A stretch of 64,000 nt of DNA from Ostreococcus lucimarinus (taxonomy: Eukaryota), in NCBI GenBank assembly GCA_000092065.1, contig CP000585.1. One strand, given 5' to 3'. The translations under genes were made by a program, and so were the position numbers. The notes below the pieces were generated by a model that was not told the DNA's origin, ran no database searches, and was given only the letters and a program-made list of their open reading frames with translations. Of this stretch, positions 31,590 through 59,206 are shown one piece after another (the first letter of the stretch is position 1; each line of letters begins with the position of its first letter).

Positions 31590-31670
31590 ATGGCGGACGT
31601 CGACGAGAACGCGTACGCCGCGCTGGGACTGGCGTTCGAGGACGCGCCGAGCGAGGCGACGATTAAAAAG
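31590..31670 (+). CDS. DNAJC17: DnaJ homolog subfamily C member 17-like (J-domain + RRM protein), exon 1
   Basis: ATG at 31590. It encodes MADVDENAYAALGLAFEDAPSEATIKK, the start of a J domain, and is followed immediately by GTGCGT. Confidence 0.8.
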
Positions 31671-31813
31671 GTGCGTCGAGCGCGCGACGCGCGCGACGCG
31701 CGACGCGCGGGGCGACGCGACGCGCGCGACTCGACGATTTCGCATTCGCATTCGCATTCGAAACGACGACTGACGACGACGACGACGACGACGACGCGCG
31801 CGAAAACTCGCAG
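31671..31813 (+). other. DNAJC17: Spliceosomal intron (143 nt, GT..AG, phase 0) splitting the J domain of DNAJC17
   Basis: Donor is AAG|GTGCGT at 31671. Acceptor is ...aaaactcgCAG| ending at 31813. Splicing joins ...ATIKK to AFRKLALKCHPDK, restoring the invariant HPD motif. The intron contains (CATTCG)3 and (GACGAC)8 tracts. Confidence 0.8.
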
Positions 31814-32677
31814 GCGTTCCGAAAACTCGCGCTGAAATGCCACCCCGATAAGCGGCCGGCGTCGGAGCGCGAGCGGGCGGAGAAGGAGTTTGACGCGCTG
31901 CGACGCGCGAGCGACGCGCTGCTCGACGTCGACGCGCGACGCGCGTTGGATGATTTCCTGCGCGCGAAAGCGGCGCGAGCGCGCGCGCACGCGGCGCACG
32001 GAGCGAAGAGAAAACGAGATTTAGAGGATCTGGAGGCGCGGGAGCGGAAGGCGGCGAGCGCGGGGGAGGTGGGGGCGGAGCGCGCGGCGCGAGAGCGGTT
32101 GCGAGGCGAGTTGGAGCGTTTGCGGCGTCGACGCGAGGAAGCGACGCGGGGGGGGAAGGCGCGAGATGGCGATGGCGTGGGGACGGCGGCGACGACGTCG
32201 ACGGTGCCGGAGCACTTGTATCGAGCGCTCAAGGTGGTGTGGCGACGCGACGGCGACGCGGACGACGACGCGTACTCGGCCAAGGAGCTGCGGGAGATTT
32301 TTGAAACCTTTGGTCGCATCGAGGACGTCGTGATTCGCGAGGGGAAGAAGAAGAAAGGCAGCGCGCTCGTCGTGTTTGCAGACGGCGACGCGTGCGCCAC
32401 GGCGTCTGGGGCGACGTGTGGGCGGTCGAGTAATCCGTTGGTCGTCGCGCGCGCCGCGATTCCTCCGAAAGTCGACGCGGGGGAACCGGCGAAGCGACGG
32501 GACGACGCGGCGTCGGGAGGCGTTTCACCGGCGCCGGCGAGCGAAACGACCGCGGCTCGAGCGCCGAGCGTCGCGAATCTAGACTTTGAGAGCGTGGTGC
32601 TGGAGCGATTGAAACGCGCGCAAGAGCGCGCTCGGCTCGTCGCAGAGGCGGAAGCGGAAGGCGACGACGAATCGTGA
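31814..32677 (+). CDS. DNAJC17: DNAJC17-like, exon 2 (rest of the J domain, Arg/Glu-rich coiled coil, C-terminal RRM)
   Basis: It encodes AFRKLALKCHPDKRPASERERAEKEFDALRRASDALLD...LKVVWRRDG...ELREIFETFGRIEDVVIREGKKKKGSALVVFADGDACATA, which is RRM-like. It is in frame with the track ORF at 31946..32677. Confidence 0.8.
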   Translation, partial: AFRKLALKCHPDKRPASERERAEKEFDALRRASDALLDVDARRALDDFLRAKAARARAHAAHGAKRKRDLEDLEARERKAASAGEVGAERAARERLRGELERLRRRREEATRGGKARDGDGVGTAATTSTVPEHLYRALKVVWRRDGDADDDAYSAKELREIFETFGRIEDVVIREGKKKKGSALVVFADGDACATASGATCGRSSNPLVVARAAIPPKVDAGEPAKRRDDAASGGVSPAPASETTAARAPSVANLDFESVVLERLKRAQERARLVAEAEAEGDDES

Positions 32678-47337: not shown

Positions 47338-47752
47338 CTACGTTCCGTCGCGTCGCGTCCATCGTCAGTCGCGCGTTCCGATCGTCGATCGATTTTTCAT
47401 TCACCGCGCGCGCGTCGTCTCGTCCCCGCGCGTCGTTCGCGCGCGCGTCCGACGCCGTCCGCGTCGCGCCCGCGAGAGGTTTTCGCCGTCGCGTCGATCG
47501 CGTCGCGCGCGCGCCGCGCGACGTCGATCGCGCCCGCGGCGCGCGCGCGATCGATGTCGAGCGACGCGTTCGCGCCGTCGCGCGCGTCGCGCGTCGCGCA
47601 CCTTCTCTTTCTTCGCCGCCATCGTCGCGCGTCGTGTGGCGTCGACCGCGGACCTTTCGCGACGGCGGGGTCGACCGACCGCGGTCCGCGGGGCGATGGC
47701 GCGGTTTTAGGGCGGGCCGTACTGTTTGCGCATACGATTGGAATGTGATGCT

Positions 47753-48724
47753 TTAAAAGAGCGTCTTGGACAGCGTCGCGACGGCGGCGCGGAGGACTTT
47801 GGCGTCGCCGCACGCGATGACCTCGCCCTGGAATTCGCCGGACTCTAGAGACGCGCGATCGGCGGTGAAACGCAAGGCGTTGCCCTTCCAGTCGGTCATG
47901 TAACCGCCCGCGCCCTTGACGATGGGGACGAGCGCCATGTAGTCGTACGGCTTGAGGTCGGCTTCGACGACGAGGTCGGCGAATCCCATGGCGAGTAAAC
48001 CGTAGGCGTAGCAGTCGCAACCGTACATTGGAATCTTAACCTTACGCGCGAGGGTTTCGTAACGCGCGGCGTTCATGCCTTCGAACATTAACGGCGTGGT
48101 GCTGTACATGTACGCGTCGCCGACGCTCTCGCACGGCTTGACGGATATCGGCTCGCCGTTCATCGTGCTCACGCGTCCACTGACCCCTATCCATCGCTCC
48201 TTGAGCACGGGTTGATCTAAAATCCCAAGCACGGGCTCGCCGTCGTGCAAAAGCGCGATTAACGTCCCCCAAAGTGGTTTACCCGTGATGAAACTCTTCG
48301 TCCCGTCGATTGGGTCGAAGACCCACGTCCACTCGCTCGACCCGCCCGCGCCGAGTTCGATCCCGTGTTCCTCCCCGAAGATCGCGTGCGTCGGGTACTC
48401 TCGCGTCACCATCGCTCGCATCACCGCCTCCGCCTGCTGATCCGCGATCGTCACCGGCGACGAATCCTTTTTATCCTCCACCTCGACGCCGCGCGCGCGA
48501 AAGTACTTCGTCGTCGTCCCGCCCGCGGCGTCCGCGAGCGCCTCCGCGAATCGCACGTACGCCTCCGGCACGACGACGCGCGGCACATCGCTCGCATCGC
48601 CCATCGCCGCGCGCGCGGTCGCGCGCGCGCGCGTCGCGCGTCGCCTCGAATTCGCGTCGCCTCGAATCCGCGTCGACGCCGACGCGCTCGCCGCGCTCGC
48701 CGCGCGCGCGTCCGCGGCGCGCAT
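47753..48724 (-). CDS. Histidinol-phosphate phosphatase of the inositol-monophosphatase family (plant IMPL2 / HisN-type)
   Basis: The track start at 48835 is a GTG, and the first in-frame ATG is at 48724. IMPase motifs are FGEEHG, WVFDPIDGTKSFITGKPLWGTLIALL and YGCDCYAYGLLAMGFADLVVEADLKPYD, with a HisN-type C-terminal WKG. The pre-sequence is Ala/Arg/Ser-rich. Confidence 0.8.
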   Translation of the reverse strand: MRAADARAASAASASASTRIRGDANSRRRATRARATARAAMGDASDVPRVVVPEAYVRFAEALADAAGGTTTKYFRARGVEVEDKKDSSPVTIADQQAEAVMRAMVTREYPTHAIFGEEHGIELGAGGSSEWTWVFDPIDGTKSFITGKPLWGTLIALLHDGEPVLGILDQPVLKERWIGVSGRVSTMNGEPISVKPCESVGDAYMYSTTPLMFEGMNAARYETLARKVKIPMYGCDCYAYGLLAMGFADLVVEADLKPYDYMALVPIVKGAGGYMTDWKGNALRFTADRASLESGEFQGEVIACGDAKVLRAAVATLSKTLF

Positions 48725-48884
48725 CGCGCGCGGGACGCGCGACGGAACGCGACGCGCGACGCGAGCGCGCGACGCGAGCGCGCGACGCGAGCGCGCGACG
48801 ACGTGTGCGGTCGACCGAAGCGGCTCGGTCGACACATTTGGTCGTCACAGAGCGACGCGCCTCCGCGTCACCGCGCGCGCCGCG

Positions 48885-49002
48885 ATGGCGGACACGAACC
48901 GAATCATGAAAGAGCTGCGCGAGATCGCGAGCGACGTCGCGTCGCAGGTCAAGGTGACGCAGCACGGGGACAGTTTGGTGCACATGAAGGGCACCATCGC
49001 GG
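48885..49002 (+). CDS. UBE2K: Ubiquitin-conjugating enzyme E2 K (UBC core + C-terminal UBA), exon 1
   Basis: ATG verified at 48885. It encodes MADTNRIMKELREIASDVASQVKVTQHGDSLVHMKGTIAG, matching human UBE2K (MANIAVQRIKREFKEV...IKVDLVDENFTELRGEIAGP). Confidence 0.9.
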
Positions 49003-49070
49003 GTGCGTGCGCGCGATCGCGACGCGGCGAAACGCGTCGCGAGAGACTGACGGGCGACGGCCGCGCGCAG
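49003..49070 (+). other. UBE2K: Spliceosomal intron (68 nt, GT..AG, phase 1) in UBE2K
   Basis: Donor is G|GTGCGT at 49003 and acceptor is gcgCAG| ending at 49070. G plus GA reconstitutes a Gly codon, giving ...TIAG-PSETVYEGGTF..., which aligns with human ...EIAGPPDTPYEGGRY.... The length is not a multiple of 3, which explains why the two exons fall in different track ORFs (48885..49157 and 48365..49531). Confidence 0.9.
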
Positions 49071-49531
49071 GACCGAGCGAGACGGTGTACGAGGGCGGGA
49101 CGTTTCACATCGACATACAGATCGGGGCGTCGTATCCGTTCGAACCGCCGAAGATGAAGTTTCTCACCAAGGTGTGGCATCCAAACGTGTCGAGCCAGAC
49201 GGGGGCGATTTGCCTGGACGTGCTGAAGGATCAGTGGTCGCCGGCGTTGACGCTGAAGACGGCGCTGTTGTCGTGTCAGGCGCTGCTGGCGGCGCCGGAA
49301 CCGGACGATCCGCAGGACGCGCAGGTGGCGCAGATGTACACGGAACGACGAGGGGAGTTCGACGAGACGGCGAGGACGTGGACGAAGAAGTACGCCACGG
49401 AGGATCAGAAGGATCCGGTCGTCGGGGAGTTGATGGAGATGGGGTTCAGTGAGGGTGCGGTATTGAAAGCGCTGACGAAGTGCGGTGGGAATAAGGATCG
49501 CGCGGTCGAGGAGCTGTTGGGGGGGGCTTGA
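49071..49531 (+). CDS. UBE2K: UBE2K, exon 2 (UBC fold remainder + UBA domain)
   Basis: It encodes [69 protein letters not shown]...ELMEMGFSEGAVLKALTKCGGNKDRAVEELLGG. This closely matches human UBE2K ([69 protein letters not shown]...LCAMGFDRNAVIVALSS). Confidence 0.9.
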
Positions 49532-49637
49532 ACGCCGCCGTCGATTCGGTTTGCGCGAACGATGAACGTCGAAACGAACTACAATAGCACAGCACAACGC
49601 GCTTCGAGGCGCAATAGCGGATACGTACGATAAATAA

Positions 49638-50279
49638 ATGACACATAATGATCGCATCCAATTTATTCCCAAGTGGCACGTTCTGCTCGTGATTTTGTGC
49701 GCGTTCACGTCGTCGTACGCGGCGGCGGAGTCGGAGGCGAGGGCGCGAGCAACCGCGGCGCGAGTTCGCACCGCCGATGTCCGCACGTGCACCGGTCGAC
49801 CGGTAGACGCGCTCGTCGTCGGGCAAGCCATATGCTTGCGACAGCAAATCGATACCGCTTTGATTCAACCGCTTCCTCTGAGCGACGTGGACGTGGACGT
49901 AAAGGTGCTCGTCGGCGACGTCCAACAGCCTCTTCGAGGCGAACCTGTCGTCGACGCAGCGACGGATTCTATCACGTTTACATTCGTGCCGACGCGCGAT
50001 GCACGAAGCGGACGACTAAGTGTGGAGACTAGTGTGCAGCCGTCGAGCGATCCTCGCGTGAGTGCGGGGTATTACGATGTCATCTGGTACGAATTGAGTG
50101 TTGTGTGGCCAACATTTTTCTCGTATCGCGAGGTGGATGTGGCGCCGTCGACTGTGGAAGAGGAAGAGGAAGAGGAAGAGGAAGAGGTCAAGGCGGAGGT
50201 GGAATTCAACCCATTCCCCTGCACGTGGTTTCTCGGCGCCGATTATTTGTGCAACTCCACGACGTGGATATCAGGATGA
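49638..50279 (+). CDS. Hypothetical secreted protein candidate (signal-peptide-like N-terminus, poly-Glu tract), next to an unusual AT-rich island
   Basis: ATG at 49638 inside the AT-rich stretch ataaataaatgacacataatg. The N-terminus is MTHNDRIQFIPKWHVLLVILCAFTSSYAAAESE, and EEEEEEEEEEE is encoded by (GAAGAG)n at about 50150-50195. No homology recognised; it may be non-coding 3' region of the convergent UBE2K/helicase pair. Confidence 0.3.
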   Translation: MTHNDRIQFIPKWHVLLVILCAFTSSYAAAESEARARATAARVRTADVRTCTGRPVDALVVGQAICLRQQIDTALIQPLPLSDVDVDVKVLVGDVQQPLRGEPVVDAATDSITFTFVPTRDARSGRLSVETSVQPSSDPRVSAGYYDVIWYELSVVWPTFFSYREVDVAPSTVEEEEEEEEEEVKAEVEFNPFPCTWFLGADYLCNSTTWISG

Positions 50280-50324
50280 CTACTTTAAGATTGTTGAAAT
50301 GTACAGCTCTACATCTACGATTTT

Positions 50325-52931
50325 CTACTCGGCTTTTCTTCGTCGCGGAGCTCGCTTCGACTTAGGACCAGACGTCGCGTTTTCTGACGACAGCGTGCTC
50401 GAATCTTTTATATTCGCATTCACTGCCTTAGCTTTTCGCAGTGGAAGGGGTAGCAGCGCGTCGGAACCCGTGACTTTTGCGATGAGATCGCGAGACTTCT
50501 CAATTCTGTCTCTCGGCGTGCCTTCTCGCTTCCGCGTCGGCGGCGGAAGATCAACCGCAACTCGAGCGCCCCAATCGGTTTTACTTTTCCCACGAGACGT
50601 ACGTGATGTTGCCTTACCGCGCGAAGTCGACGGTATCGACACCGAGCGCTCCGGTTTCTTCGATCCAGTGAGCATCGCCGAGATACTGTCGAGCAAAAAC
50701 GAACGCCTCGCCGGTTGCGCGCTCTGCCCAAACCTTCGGCGCTCGCGCGCGTGACACAACATCAACTTGCGCTTCGCACGTGTGATGCCGACGTAAAACA
50801 GGCGAACTTCTTCATCTTGGTCGTCTTCACTATCGCCGTTACGCACAAAAGGAATCAACCCTTCCTCGACGCCAGAAATGAATACGCTGTTGAACTCCAA
50901 ACCTTTACTCGCGTGCATGGTCATAAGTTTGACCGTGTCTCCTCCTTCTTCTTCCTTGCTCTCGGCACTCGTGAGTAACGATATGCCTTCCAAAAACGAA
51001 CCTAAAGCTTCCAGGCCAACGCGATCCTGGATGGTTTCGTCAATGTCTTGCGGTGGCTCTTTCGCCAAGTTGATGAGCTCCTGCACAAACGCCCAACGCT
51101 CGTTGCCATCGTCGGCATCTTGCACGAGGGTGTCGTAACCCGTACATTTGATAATCGCTTCCAGCAGTTCGCCCGGTGTCGAGCTTTTCGCCTTCTCTCG
51201 GGTTTCCGCCATGAGCTGTGAAAATTTTAGTACAGCAGATCTCGCGCGCGTCGTCAATCCCATTTCCTCCGCGCTCGGCAGCAGTTCGGTCTGCCCTTCG
51301 TCGCCTTTGGTTCTCCAAGCGCCGTTGAACAGGGCGTCGCCGATTGACGGTGGAACGCCATCTGTTTTCGGAAGCGTATCAATCCATGCGCTGAGCTTTT
51401 CGATGGTTGAGTTCCCGATGCCTCTCGTTGGCGTGTTGATGATTCGGTTCAGACTCACCGTGTCCGCCGAGTTGGACACCACGCGCAGGTACGCGATCAT
51501 ATCTTTAATCTCCTTACGACCGTAGAACGATGTGTCGCCGATAACTTTGTGCGGTACGCCCGCACGAATAAACGCTTCCTCGAGCACTCGAGCCTGCGAG
51601 TTGGTTCGATACAAGACAGCGATTTCTGAATACCGTAAATCCGGGTCCTCCTTGACTGACTTGCGCGCCTCTAAAGCTATGAATTCGGCCTCTTCGCGAT
51701 CGTCATTTGCCTCGACGATCGCGACGTCACGTCCACCCGGGGTGTTCGCGACGAGGTCCAATGGCGACGGGAAAGCGCTTTCCTTGATGACTGCCTGCGC
51801 CGCCTCGACGATGGTCGCCGTACTTCTGTAATTCGTCGTCAGCATGTGCGTCTGGACATCCTTGAAGTCTTCATCGAACTGCGTGCGAATGTTTGCGACC
51901 TCGGCGCCGCGCCAACCATAAATAGCCTGATCGGCGTCGCCCACGACGAACACTGAACCTTGCGGCTGAGATAATTTTCTAATCAACTCGTACTGCGTCG
52001 TCGAAGTGTCTTGAAACTCGTCAACGAGTACCTGGCTCCATCGATGCTCATAATACGACCGTACGTCCGGGCACATCTCCAACATCGCCACTGTCGCCGA
52101 AAGCAAGTCATCAAAGTCAAATGCGTTCGCTTGCCGCAAACCGAGCTCGTACTCGTCGTAACACTCCACGAAGCGCTCGTGCGACATCGGCGGTATGGGC
52201 TTGTGCGCGTCCAAAAGTGCCCGCAACATGTGTGACCCATTCAACCCGACCGAGTGTTTCACGCACGACTTCGACGTACTAATCCAGTTTCTCATCGGTC
52301 CCGGCTGCGCCGTCTTCTTCGTCTCCCCAAACTTGTTCACCAACACGCCCTGCACGATTTGCTTGCTGTCGTCGGCGTCGTAAATCGTAAACTCTCCCGT
52401 TCGTCCTATGCCCGGAATTCGATCGCCGTGTCGTCGCAGCATCCTCGCCGCGACGGAATGAAACGTCCCTGCCGTGATCTCTCGCGCCGCGGCGTCGCCA
52501 ATCTTATCCCTCAATCTTTCTCGCAGTTCGCGCGCCGCCTTATTCGTAAACGTGATGCACAAAATCTCCCTCGGCGGCGTCTTCAGCTCGTGAATCAGGT
52601 GCGCGACGCGTCCGATGAGCACGTGCGTCTTCCCGGACCCCGGACCCGCGAGCACGCGCGTCGCGCCCACGGGCGCGAGCACCGCGGCGCGCTGGTCGTC
52701 GTTCAAACCGCGCACGTGCGGCGGTTCGAGCGCATCAACCGTCGCTTCAGCGCCCCACGGCGCGGCGGTGTACGTCCTCGCGCGCGCGCGCGCCTCGGGA
52801 TCGACCGCTCGCGTCACGCGCGACATTCCCGCCGCGCGCCGCGCGCACGCACGCGCGCACGCGCGCGCGCGCGTCCCGAGAGACGCGCTCGATGGCACCA
52901 TCGCGTGCGGCGTCGGCGCGCTCGCGCGCAT
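50325..52931 (-). CDS. UvrD/PcrA/Rep-family ATP-dependent DNA helicase with an Ala/Arg-rich (organelle-targeting-like) N-terminal extension and a basic C-terminal tail
   Basis: ATG verified (cat at 52929-52931). Walker A is AGPGSGKT. Motifs Ia FTNKAARELRERL and II VLVDEFQDTS are present. The C-terminal motifs are MTMHASKGLEF and VGITRAKRKLML. Confidence 0.85.
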   Translation of the reverse strand: MRASAPTPHAMVPSSASLGTRARACARACARRAAGMSRVTRAVDPEARARARTYTAAPWGAEATVDALEPPHVRGLNDDQRAAVLAPVGATRVLAGPGSGKTHVLIGRVAHLIHELKTPPREILCITFTNKAARELRERLRDKIGDAAAREITAGTFHSVAARMLRRHGDRIPGIGRTGEFTIYDADDSKQIVQGVLVNKFGETKKTAQPGPMRNWISTSKSCVKHSVGLNGSHMLRALLDAHKPIPPMSHERFVECYDEYELGLRQANAFDFDDLLSATVAMLEMCPDVRSYYEHRWSQVLVDEFQDTSTTQYELIRKLSQPQGSVFVVGDADQAIYGWRGAEVANIRTQFDEDFKDVQTHMLTTNYRSTATIVEAAQAVIKESAFPSPLDLVANTPGGRDVAIVEANDDREEAEFIALEARKSVKEDPDLRYSEIAVLYRTNSQARVLEEAFIRAGVPHKVIGDTSFYGRKEIKDMIAYLRVVSNSADTVSLNRIINTPTRGIGNSTIEKLSAWIDTLPKTDGVPPSIGDALFNGAWRTKGDEGQTELLPSAEEMGLTTRARSAVLKFSQLMAETREKAKSSTPGELLEAIIKCTGYDTLVQDADDGNERWAFVQELINLAKEPPQDIDETIQDRVGLEALGSFLEGISLLTSAESKEEEGGDTVKLMTMHASKGLEFNSVFISGVEEGLIPFVRNGDSEDDQDEEVRLFYVGITRAKRKLMLCHARERRRFGQSAQPARRSFLLDSISAMLTGSKKPERSVSIPSTSRGKATSRTSRGKSKTDWGARVAVDLPPPTRKREGTPRDRIEKSRDLIAKVTGSDALLPLPLRKAKAVNANIKDSSTLSSENATSGPKSKRAPRRRKAE

Positions 52932-57650: not shown

Positions 57651-58120
57651 TCGCCCGTTCATCGTGTAACGCACAATCCTTCGCGCGTCGTCCCGCGTCG
57701 GCTCGTCGCCAGCCGCGCCGCGCGCGTCGCCGCACATCGGCGCACTCGATCCGCGCAGACATGGGCGGCCGCCGCGCGCACCACGAAAACGGCGATCACC
57801 CCATGTGTTCGTTCGCGGCGTGCGTGCCGCCCAAGGAGTGGAGCGCCGAGCGCGTGAGGTGCGTCGCGACGCGCGCGATCGTCGCGAGATAACGACCTCG
57901 AGATATCGCTTGAGTTTCGTTCGAAACGCGCTCGCGCGACGCGCGCGCGCGACGCGGGCGGGCGACGAGGGATGCGACCGAAGCGAACGCGCGAACGCGA
58001 CTGACGAACGACGCGCGCGCGACGCACGAACGCAGGACGTGCGTGGATGAGTGCTTTGAAAAATTGCCGAAGACGTACTACAAGGTGGAACGACGCGAGT
58101 GCGGCGGATTGGCGCGGTCG

Positions 58121-59206
58121 ATGACGCACAAGGTGAAGTTTGCGAGCGGTAACTCGTATGAGCTGGCGCTGGTGAGCGATACGCTCGGGGCGGAGGAGGT
58201 TGGGAAGAAGTTTGAGGCGATTCGCGAGGAGCACGCGGACCTGCGCGAACGGTCGCTGGCGTTGAAGGCGTATTTGAAAGAGTTGAGCGGCAAGCATAAA
58301 TTTTCGTTCGTCGTGATCGACGATACGACGAAACGTGTTTTTGCCGCGGCGACGCAGTTCAGCGCGCCGTTGTCGTTCGGCCATTCGAAGGATGGGATGC
58401 TCGTTTTGTTTTGCGGCGCGGGGGGGAAGTCGGTGGCGACGCACTGGCCGCTCAACGAGCAAGAGGTGACCCAATGCGCGCAGCACGGCGAGGCGGCGCG
58501 ACGTCGAAGCATTGATGTGAGAGATCGTCCACCCGCGAACGCGGCCGGCGGCAGTAGGCGAAGCGTGGACGGCGGTAGGCGAAGCGTGGACGGCGGCAGG
58601 CGAAGCGTGGACGGCGGTCGCCGCAGCATCGACGAAAAAGCAGTCTTCACGTCTGAAGTCGGCTGGGTCGATCCGGGCGCCACCGTGCCAGTGGATTTCA
58701 CTCACAACAGGATCGTGCTCACGCATCTCCCAGTCGGGCGCTTCGTGTACGGGCACGGGTACCTACAGCCGTACGAGTTCACCTCGTTTTGGAGCAGCGC
58801 CCAGAGCAACCGCGCCGGCGTGCCCGAGCGGGCGTTCCACAGCGGCAATGACTGGTCAAAGGAGTCGCCCAACAGCAGCCGAAGAAGTAGTTTCGACGTC
58901 AACAGCGCCGACGGCGCGCCTCGACGTTCCAGCATCGACGAACGTCATCGCAAATGGGAAAGCACCAATTCAAAGTGCGACACCGAGGCGAGTTGGAAAA
59001 AACCCGCCGCAGAAGCGAAGCGCCCGCTCCCACCGCGTTCGCCGATAAAAAGCCAAGAACCCATCGTGCCTTCGCTCGAGAAATTATCCGTCAAGGACGG
59101 CGAGAAGAAAAAGAGCTCGCTCGGGTCAAAAATCCGTCGAAACCTGTCTGTCGAAAGTCTCAAAAAAGCCTTCGGCGTCGCGGGCAAGAAATCCGAAGAC
59201 GCGTGA
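58121..59206 (+). CDS. Hypothetical Ser/Arg/Lys-rich protein containing a 4x tandem heptapeptide repeat (GGRRSVD)
   Basis: The track start at 58043 is a GTG, and the first in-frame ATG is at 58121 (MTHKVKFASGN...). The composition is protein-like (K, E, F, Y), unlike the antisense ORF at 57659..58756. No family recognised. Confidence 0.4.
   Translation: MTHKVKFASGNSYELALVSDTLGAEEVGKKFEAIREEHADLRERSLALKAYLKELSGKHKFSFVVIDDTTKRVFAAATQFSAPLSFGHSKDGMLVLFCGAGGKSVATHWPLNEQEVTQCAQHGEAARRRSIDVRDRPPANAAGGSRRSVDGGRRSVDGGRRSVDGGRRSIDEKAVFTSEVGWVDPGATVPVDFTHNRIVLTHLPVGRFVYGHGYLQPYEFTSFWSSAQSNRAGVPERAFHSGNDWSKESPNSSRRSSFDVNSADGAPRRSSIDERHRKWESTNSKCDTEASWKKPAAEAKRPLPPRSPIKSQEPIVPSLEKLSVKDGEKKKSSLGSKIRRNLSVESLKKAFGVAGKKSEDA
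58553..58636 (+). repeat. 21-bp tandem repeat x4 (GGYAGKCGAAGCGTGGACGGC-like) encoding GGRRSVD x4
   Basis: The run ggcagtaggcgaagcgtggacggcggtaggcgaagcgtggacggcggcaggcgaagcgtggacggcggtcgccgcagcatcgac is visible. Confidence 0.85.

Follow-up and report, generated by a model that had tools for sequence, protein, structure and literature searches.

The plus strand of the 64,000-nucleotide stretch of Ostreococcus lucimarinus DNA analysed here (contig CP000585.1; hereafter the window) carries two partly overlapping ORFs that each contain a portion of a ubiquitin-conjugating enzyme (E2), raising the question of whether they belong to one gene interrupted by an intron, to two separate genes, or to one reading frame broken by a frameshift. 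The original prediction, made from the letters alone, had favoured a UBE2K gene of two exons in different frames, and both of the ORFs on which it was built were located as described:

48885..49157, plus strand: 90-aa ORF, which starts with MADTNRIMKELREIA...KGTIAG and later turns Arg-rich
48365..49531, plus strand: 388-aa ORF, in a frame different from that of the 90-aa ORF

In its longer form the opening of the 90-aa ORF reads MADTNRIMKELREIASDVASQVKVTQHGDSLVHMKGTIAG, with Arg-rich sequence beyond, and the 388-aa ORF consists of ~235 residues rich in Arg and Ala followed by PSETVYEGGTFHIDIQ... up to the stop, its final ~152 aa comprising the E2 core and a UBA domain.

A spliced E2 gene and its predicted product

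Direct splicing of the window sequence yields a coding sequence of 579 nt that encodes 192 aa and has a single, terminal stop; the original prediction had put the product at 196 aa, its only slip. The parts of the model are as follows:

48885..49002, plus strand: exon 1, 118 nt, from the ATG through the first base of the Gly40 codon
49003..49070, plus strand: spliceosomal GT-AG intron, 68 nt, 76% G+C
49071..49531, plus strand: exon 2, 461 nt including the TGA stop

Exon 1 codes for residues 1-39, MADTNRIMKELREIASDVASQVKVTQHGDSLVHMKGTIA, together with the opening G of the codon for Gly40. The N-terminal helix of the UBC core and its first strands come from this exon, whose length of 118 nt puts the intron in phase 1. 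Exon 2 begins with the two remaining bases of the Gly40 codon and continues through residues 41-192 to the TGA stop, and thereby encodes what is left of the UBC core, the linker and the UBA domain. We put the probability of this reading, a two-exon E2 gene with a 68-nt spliceosomal intron and a product of the UBE2K/Ubc1/UBC27 family, at about 97%. It rests on the completeness of the UQ_con domain after splicing, on the invariance of G40 and P41 and on the existence of contigs that lack the 68 nt, each of which is presented below.

According to this model, one nuclear O. lucimarinus gene gives rise to a pre-mRNA with a single U2-type GT-AG intron in phase 1 of the Gly40 codon, and splicing links 48885-49002 to 49071-49531. 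The appearance of two ORFs in different frames is then a consequence of six-frame translation across an intron whose length, 68 nt, is not divisible by 3: retention of the intron would shift the frame and produce the 90-aa ORF ending at 49157, and spurious ORFs run long in the six-frame translation of a G+C-rich genome. The third-position G+C of the spliced coding sequence (84%) and the G+C of the window (58.7%) both fit the O. lucimarinus genome. On the opposite strand, a 328-aa ORF (48845..49831, minus strand) covering the whole E2 gene was considered as an antisense gene and rejected, as it has no Pfam match; it most probably arises as a side effect of the G+C-rich third codon positions on the sense strand.

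In the spliced product, and only there, the Pfam domain UQ_con (PF00179) is complete: residues 6-143 match profile positions 1-139/140 (E 3.3e-45, 153.5 bits against a cut-off of 27). A UBA domain (PF00627) follows at residues 157-186 (E 7e-08, 32.6 bits against a cut-off of 22.4), and UBA_7 (PF22562) is also matched (27.7 against a cut-off of 27). The two functional segments map to the window as follows:

49178..49213, plus strand: active-site stretch, from the HPN motif His76-Pro77-Asn78 (49178-49186) to Cys87 (TGC, 49211-49213)
49421..49510, plus strand: C-terminal UBA domain, residues 157-186, with an MGF motif at residue 163

Comparison with PDB sequences returned a Plasmodium E2 with a UBA domain (2pwq, E 2e-56), human UBE2K (1.4e-52) and yeast Ubc1 (1tte, 1.9e-51), in alignments that span residues 5-189 and are ungapped at the exon junction, whereas UBE2D/Ubc4-type E2s matched over the core only (~1e-41). 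Across the junction, the predicted ...TIAG-PSETVYEGG... aligns without a gap to human ...geiagppdtpyegg..., the active-site stretch aligns to the human segment whpnissvtgaicld, and the UBA domain to those of UBE2K and Plasmodium 2pwq. Residues 5-189 of the algal protein correspond to 8-199 of UBE2K, and it is the algal sequence that shows short gaps in this alignment, close to the N-terminus and in the linker between core and UBA; the algal protein has 192 aa against the 200 aa that the original prediction gave for the human one. Plant and algal UBC27-type proteins are 57-65% identical to it, and homologues bear source names such as 'huntingtin interacting protein 2', 'E2 27' and 'UBC27'. Alignment of 10-11 full-length or transcript-derived orthologues from green algae (other Mamiellales, Cymbomonas, Pycnococcus), a flowering plant (Amborella), a pelagophyte (Aureococcus) and a diatom (Phaeodactylum) showed G40, P41, H76, P77, N78 and C87 to be invariant, and no gap was opened at the junction when the spliced model was aligned to UBE2K/Ubc1 orthologues.

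The Pfam and PDB matches and the names of the homologues thus bear out the UBE2K identity first proposed. Judged by its domain order, a UBC core and then a C-terminal UBA domain, the predicted product is a class II E2 of the UBE2K/yeast Ubc1/plant UBC27 family; human UBE2K (E2-25K/HIP2), yeast Ubc1 and plant UBC27 share this arrangement and keep the HPN motif and the catalytic Cys. Family membership suggests that the enzyme would form a ubiquitin thioester on Cys87 and build ubiquitin chains.

The same gene is already in the databases. An exact-sequence look-up found the 192-aa spliced product to be identical at every residue to XP_001417769.1 / ABO96062.1 / UniRef100_A4RXK6 of O. lucimarinus CCE9901, the deposited protein that the predicted exon-intron-exon arrangement yields exactly. 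Gene, intron and product therefore stand in GenBank/RefSeq with precisely this structure and nothing in them is new; the deposited labels are 'predicted protein' (GenBank) and 'E2 ubiquitin-conjugating enzyme', and the family name UBE2K/UBC27 is somewhat more specific than the former. A literature search for the Ostreococcus UBC27 gene specifically found nothing relevant. The gene, which encodes a housekeeping E2 and has a single canonical intron close to the 5' end, is of very little importance for biology; what the locus does illustrate is that a correct eukaryotic gene model is recoverable from raw sequence by a first-stage reader.

Splice signals and conservation of the intron

Three elements can be read within the 68 nt:

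49003..49009, plus strand: 5' splice site GTGCGTG, in the context G|GTGCGT, with its GT at 49003-49004
49045..49052, plus strand: branch-site motif GACTGACG, with the presumed branch A at 49050
49068..49070, plus strand: 3' splice site CAG, read in the sequence, the acceptor of intron 49003-49070

The donor at 49002/49003, the CAG acceptor, the length and the phase all agree with the original prediction. The intron has the GT and AG ends of the U2 type and a CTRAY branch motif shortly 5' of the acceptor; A49050, which sits 20 nt 5' of the 3' splice site, is the probable branch point. EST-confirmed O. lucimarinus introns outside chromosome 2 are known to have an atypical 5' splice-site consensus, GTGCGTG, and to carry ACTGAC in 87.2% and the extended GACTGACG in 66.5% of cases, and the median length listed for all introns of the species is 111 nt (Irimia and Roy, PLoS Genet 2008, PMC2483917). 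With its GTGCGTG donor, its GACTGACG motif and its position near the 5' end of the gene, the E2-gene intron resembles these canonical non-chromosome-2 introns; although its 68 nt fall below the median, it is typical otherwise, a standard example of the splice-signal class published for O. lucimarinus in 2008. Splice motifs as the sole evidence for an intron were dropped, because the loose pattern GTGCGT..ACTGAC..YAG is not strongly enriched: it has 5 matches at 3 loci in the window against ~2 expected from first-order Markov random sequences that use the window's dinucleotide transition frequencies.

The position of the intron is shared by relatives. Orthologous loci were found in three of them, all within Mamiellales (O. 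mediterraneus, L004/L005; a further Ostreococcus clade, L008/L009; and a Bathycoccus-like taxon, L006/L007), and in each a phase-1 intron interrupts the Gly codon just before Pro after the first of its three bases. The lengths are 118 nt, 134 nt and 177 nt, respectively; all have the donor GTGCGT, with ACTGAC or ACTAAC as the branch motif and CAG or TAG as the acceptor, and the interiors of the orthologous introns share no sequence beyond these splice signals. The position, common to several Ostreococcus clades and the Bathycoccus-like taxon, is ancient. The spliced product of L004 equals an O. mediterraneus MMETSP transcript (P0140), and spliced forms are available for the other lineages as well (P0003, P0020).

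We also considered whether the intron could be an introner or other repeated element. Introner elements, which form repeated intron families in Micromonas and other algae (PMC4540971), are likewise short spliceosomal introns of Mamiellophyceae nuclear genes. Unlike them, the E2-gene intron is single-copy in the window, occupies an ancient position and is unrelated in its interior to its orthologues; a search of the 64-kb window for a second copy returned only CG-rich matches of at most 18 nt, and the idea was rejected.

Contigs that lack the 68 nucleotides

Assemblies of three public runs contain the locus minus exactly 68 nt (L001, SRR28369019; L002, SRR17229556; L003, SRR17229566), and each encodes the 192-aa protein as one unbroken ORF. 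By BLAST, the three contigs are 99-100% identical to the window on either side of the precise deletion, with the exon 1 stretch 100% identical, and at 49002|49071, where the original prediction had looked for junction reads, all three independently assembled contigs read CATCGCGG|GACCGAGC (...ATCGCGG|GACCGAG...). We infer that they are RNA-derived, which would make them direct evidence of splicing; a search for papers mentioning the three run numbers found none.

L002 and L003 are ~1 kb long, and their matches to the window are confined to 48870 or 48861 through 49632 or 49592; 5' of the match they enter unrelated sequences that differ from each other. Both are chimeric assemblies, which fits transcript contigs of a metatranscriptome assembly. 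The unrelated parts are 1-373 and 1069-1097 (a 29-nt tail) in L002 and 1-300 in L003, and by eye the 5' part of L002 resembles a lower-G+C eukaryotic topoisomerase II. The L003 match start and the L002 match end would set lower limits of 24 nt for the 5' UTR and 101 nt for the 3' UTR, giving putative transcript bounds:

48861..49632, plus strand: minimum extent of the mRNA, from the transcript-like contigs

Such chimeras among Logan contigs call for caution in UTR mapping. L001, in turn, is 2526 nt long and comprises four transcription units colinear with window positions 47510-50116, a span that is unusual for a transcript contig and plausible as a merged assembly given how compact the genome is.

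It is L001 that gives some substance to the reading that the three contigs are not RNA at all but genomic DNA, either of an intron-less allele, that is, a presence/absence polymorphism, or of a processed retro-copy. The colinearity of L001 extends through the intergenic DNA between the divergent inositol monophosphatase and E2 genes and is genome-like, so that L001, and perhaps L002 and L003, would come from a natural O. lucimarinus-like population with a precise loss of the conserved intron. If true, presence and absence of the intron would be segregating in a genome that is among the most compact of eukaryotes. Several observations make it very improbable. L002 and L003 are joined at their ends to eukaryotic coding sequence that is unrelated, as happens in misassembled metatranscriptomes, and the deletion fits the GT-AG boundaries exactly. 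Among the 241 million records of JGI metagenome contigs, an exact 32-mer across the spliced junction has no match, against 8 contigs with the exact 32-mer across the exon 1/intron boundary, and hundreds of genomic contigs with exon-2-only gene calls (197 for P0122 and 287 for P0133) imply that the intron is present. Were the contigs genomic, the evidence for splicing would become purely indirect, yet homology and the sister-species transcript P0140 would still uphold the gene model.

The possibility of two independent genes without splicing, one for the 90-aa peptide and one for an N-terminally truncated E2, draws on the fact that prokaryote-style gene callers applied to metagenome contigs do call exon 2 alone (P0001, P0122, P0133). 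The product of such a call is missing roughly 35 positions at the start of the UBC fold, and exon 1 provides exactly those; full-length orthologues and transcripts all keep the junction residues, contigs without the 68 nt exist, and neither what remains of the 388-aa ORF nor the end of the 90-aa one has a protein-family match in Pfam. We regard this reading as effectively refuted already. The same holds for an assembly frameshift error or programmed ribosomal frameshifting in place of an intron, which would account for two coding parts in different frames just 68 nt apart, since the sequence with the intron recurs free of indels in the 8 independent metagenome contigs, an insertion of ~22 residues at the junction cannot be accommodated in alignment with homologues and the interval bears the complete set of O. 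lucimarinus splice signals. Over the 647-nt gene these 8 contigs differ from the window by 0-2 substitutions, and 3 of the 5 substitutions lie inside the 68-nt intron.

Mis-calls in protein catalogues and the surrounding window

The mis-calls of the E2 gene seen in public metagenome catalogues, which arise because gene finders built for prokaryotes disregard the intron, include the exon-2-only proteins of 148 aa named above as well as products of 181-192 aa (P0005, P0141, P0142) and 252-254 aa (P0011, P0154). Some mis-called products begin inside the intron (MESVCGHLSAR...), and in the Bathycoccus-like taxon the in-frame 177-nt intron is read through, inserting 59 spurious residues. Metagenome catalogues from prokaryotic gene callers thus systematically mis-call this E2 gene, as exon-2-only proteins of 148 aa or as read-through chimeras of 181-254 aa, and those who use them for picoeukaryotes should bear this in mind.

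The order of genes around the E2 locus (window 47753-52931) is kept in the relatives (L004-L009): inositol monophosphatase (minus strand), E2 (plus strand), a small ORF and a UvrD-type helicase (minus strand). In a Pfam check of the neighbouring window genes the small ORF had no family; on the Bathycoccus-like contig this ORF lies on the opposite strand. In the divergent intergenic/5' region between the inositol monophosphatase and E2 genes there is a 13-nt tandem repeat, ACGCGAGCGCGCG, with 4.2 copies at 48747-48800 inside a wider CG-rich array (48608-48800). L001 has exactly one ACGCGAGCGCGCG unit fewer, and the copy number therefore varies in natural populations.

The other two loci matched by the loose splice-signal pattern are also on the plus strand. 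An intron of the same signal class occupies 31671-31813 (143 nt, GTGCGT...ACTGAC...CAG) in the gene 31590-32677, where splicing at 31670|31814 restores a J domain, MADVDENAYAALGLAFEDAPSEATIKK|AFRKLALKCHPDKRP...; the C-terminal part of the same gene is RRM-like, and it may be a DNAJC17-like gene. The third match is a candidate intron from 57820 or 57859 to 58035, within 57761-59206, that lies immediately 5' of a 387-aa ORF (58043..59206); both candidate donors hold an upstream ATG (57761 or 57803) in frame.

The composition of the window is uneven on a larger scale. Between ~4000 and 18000 (14 kb) the G+C is 0.50-0.55, compared with ~0.60-0.68 elsewhere, the AT skew is strongly negative (to -0.25) and the GC skew is negative, which suggests one or more very long minus-strand genes or a compositionally distinct segment.
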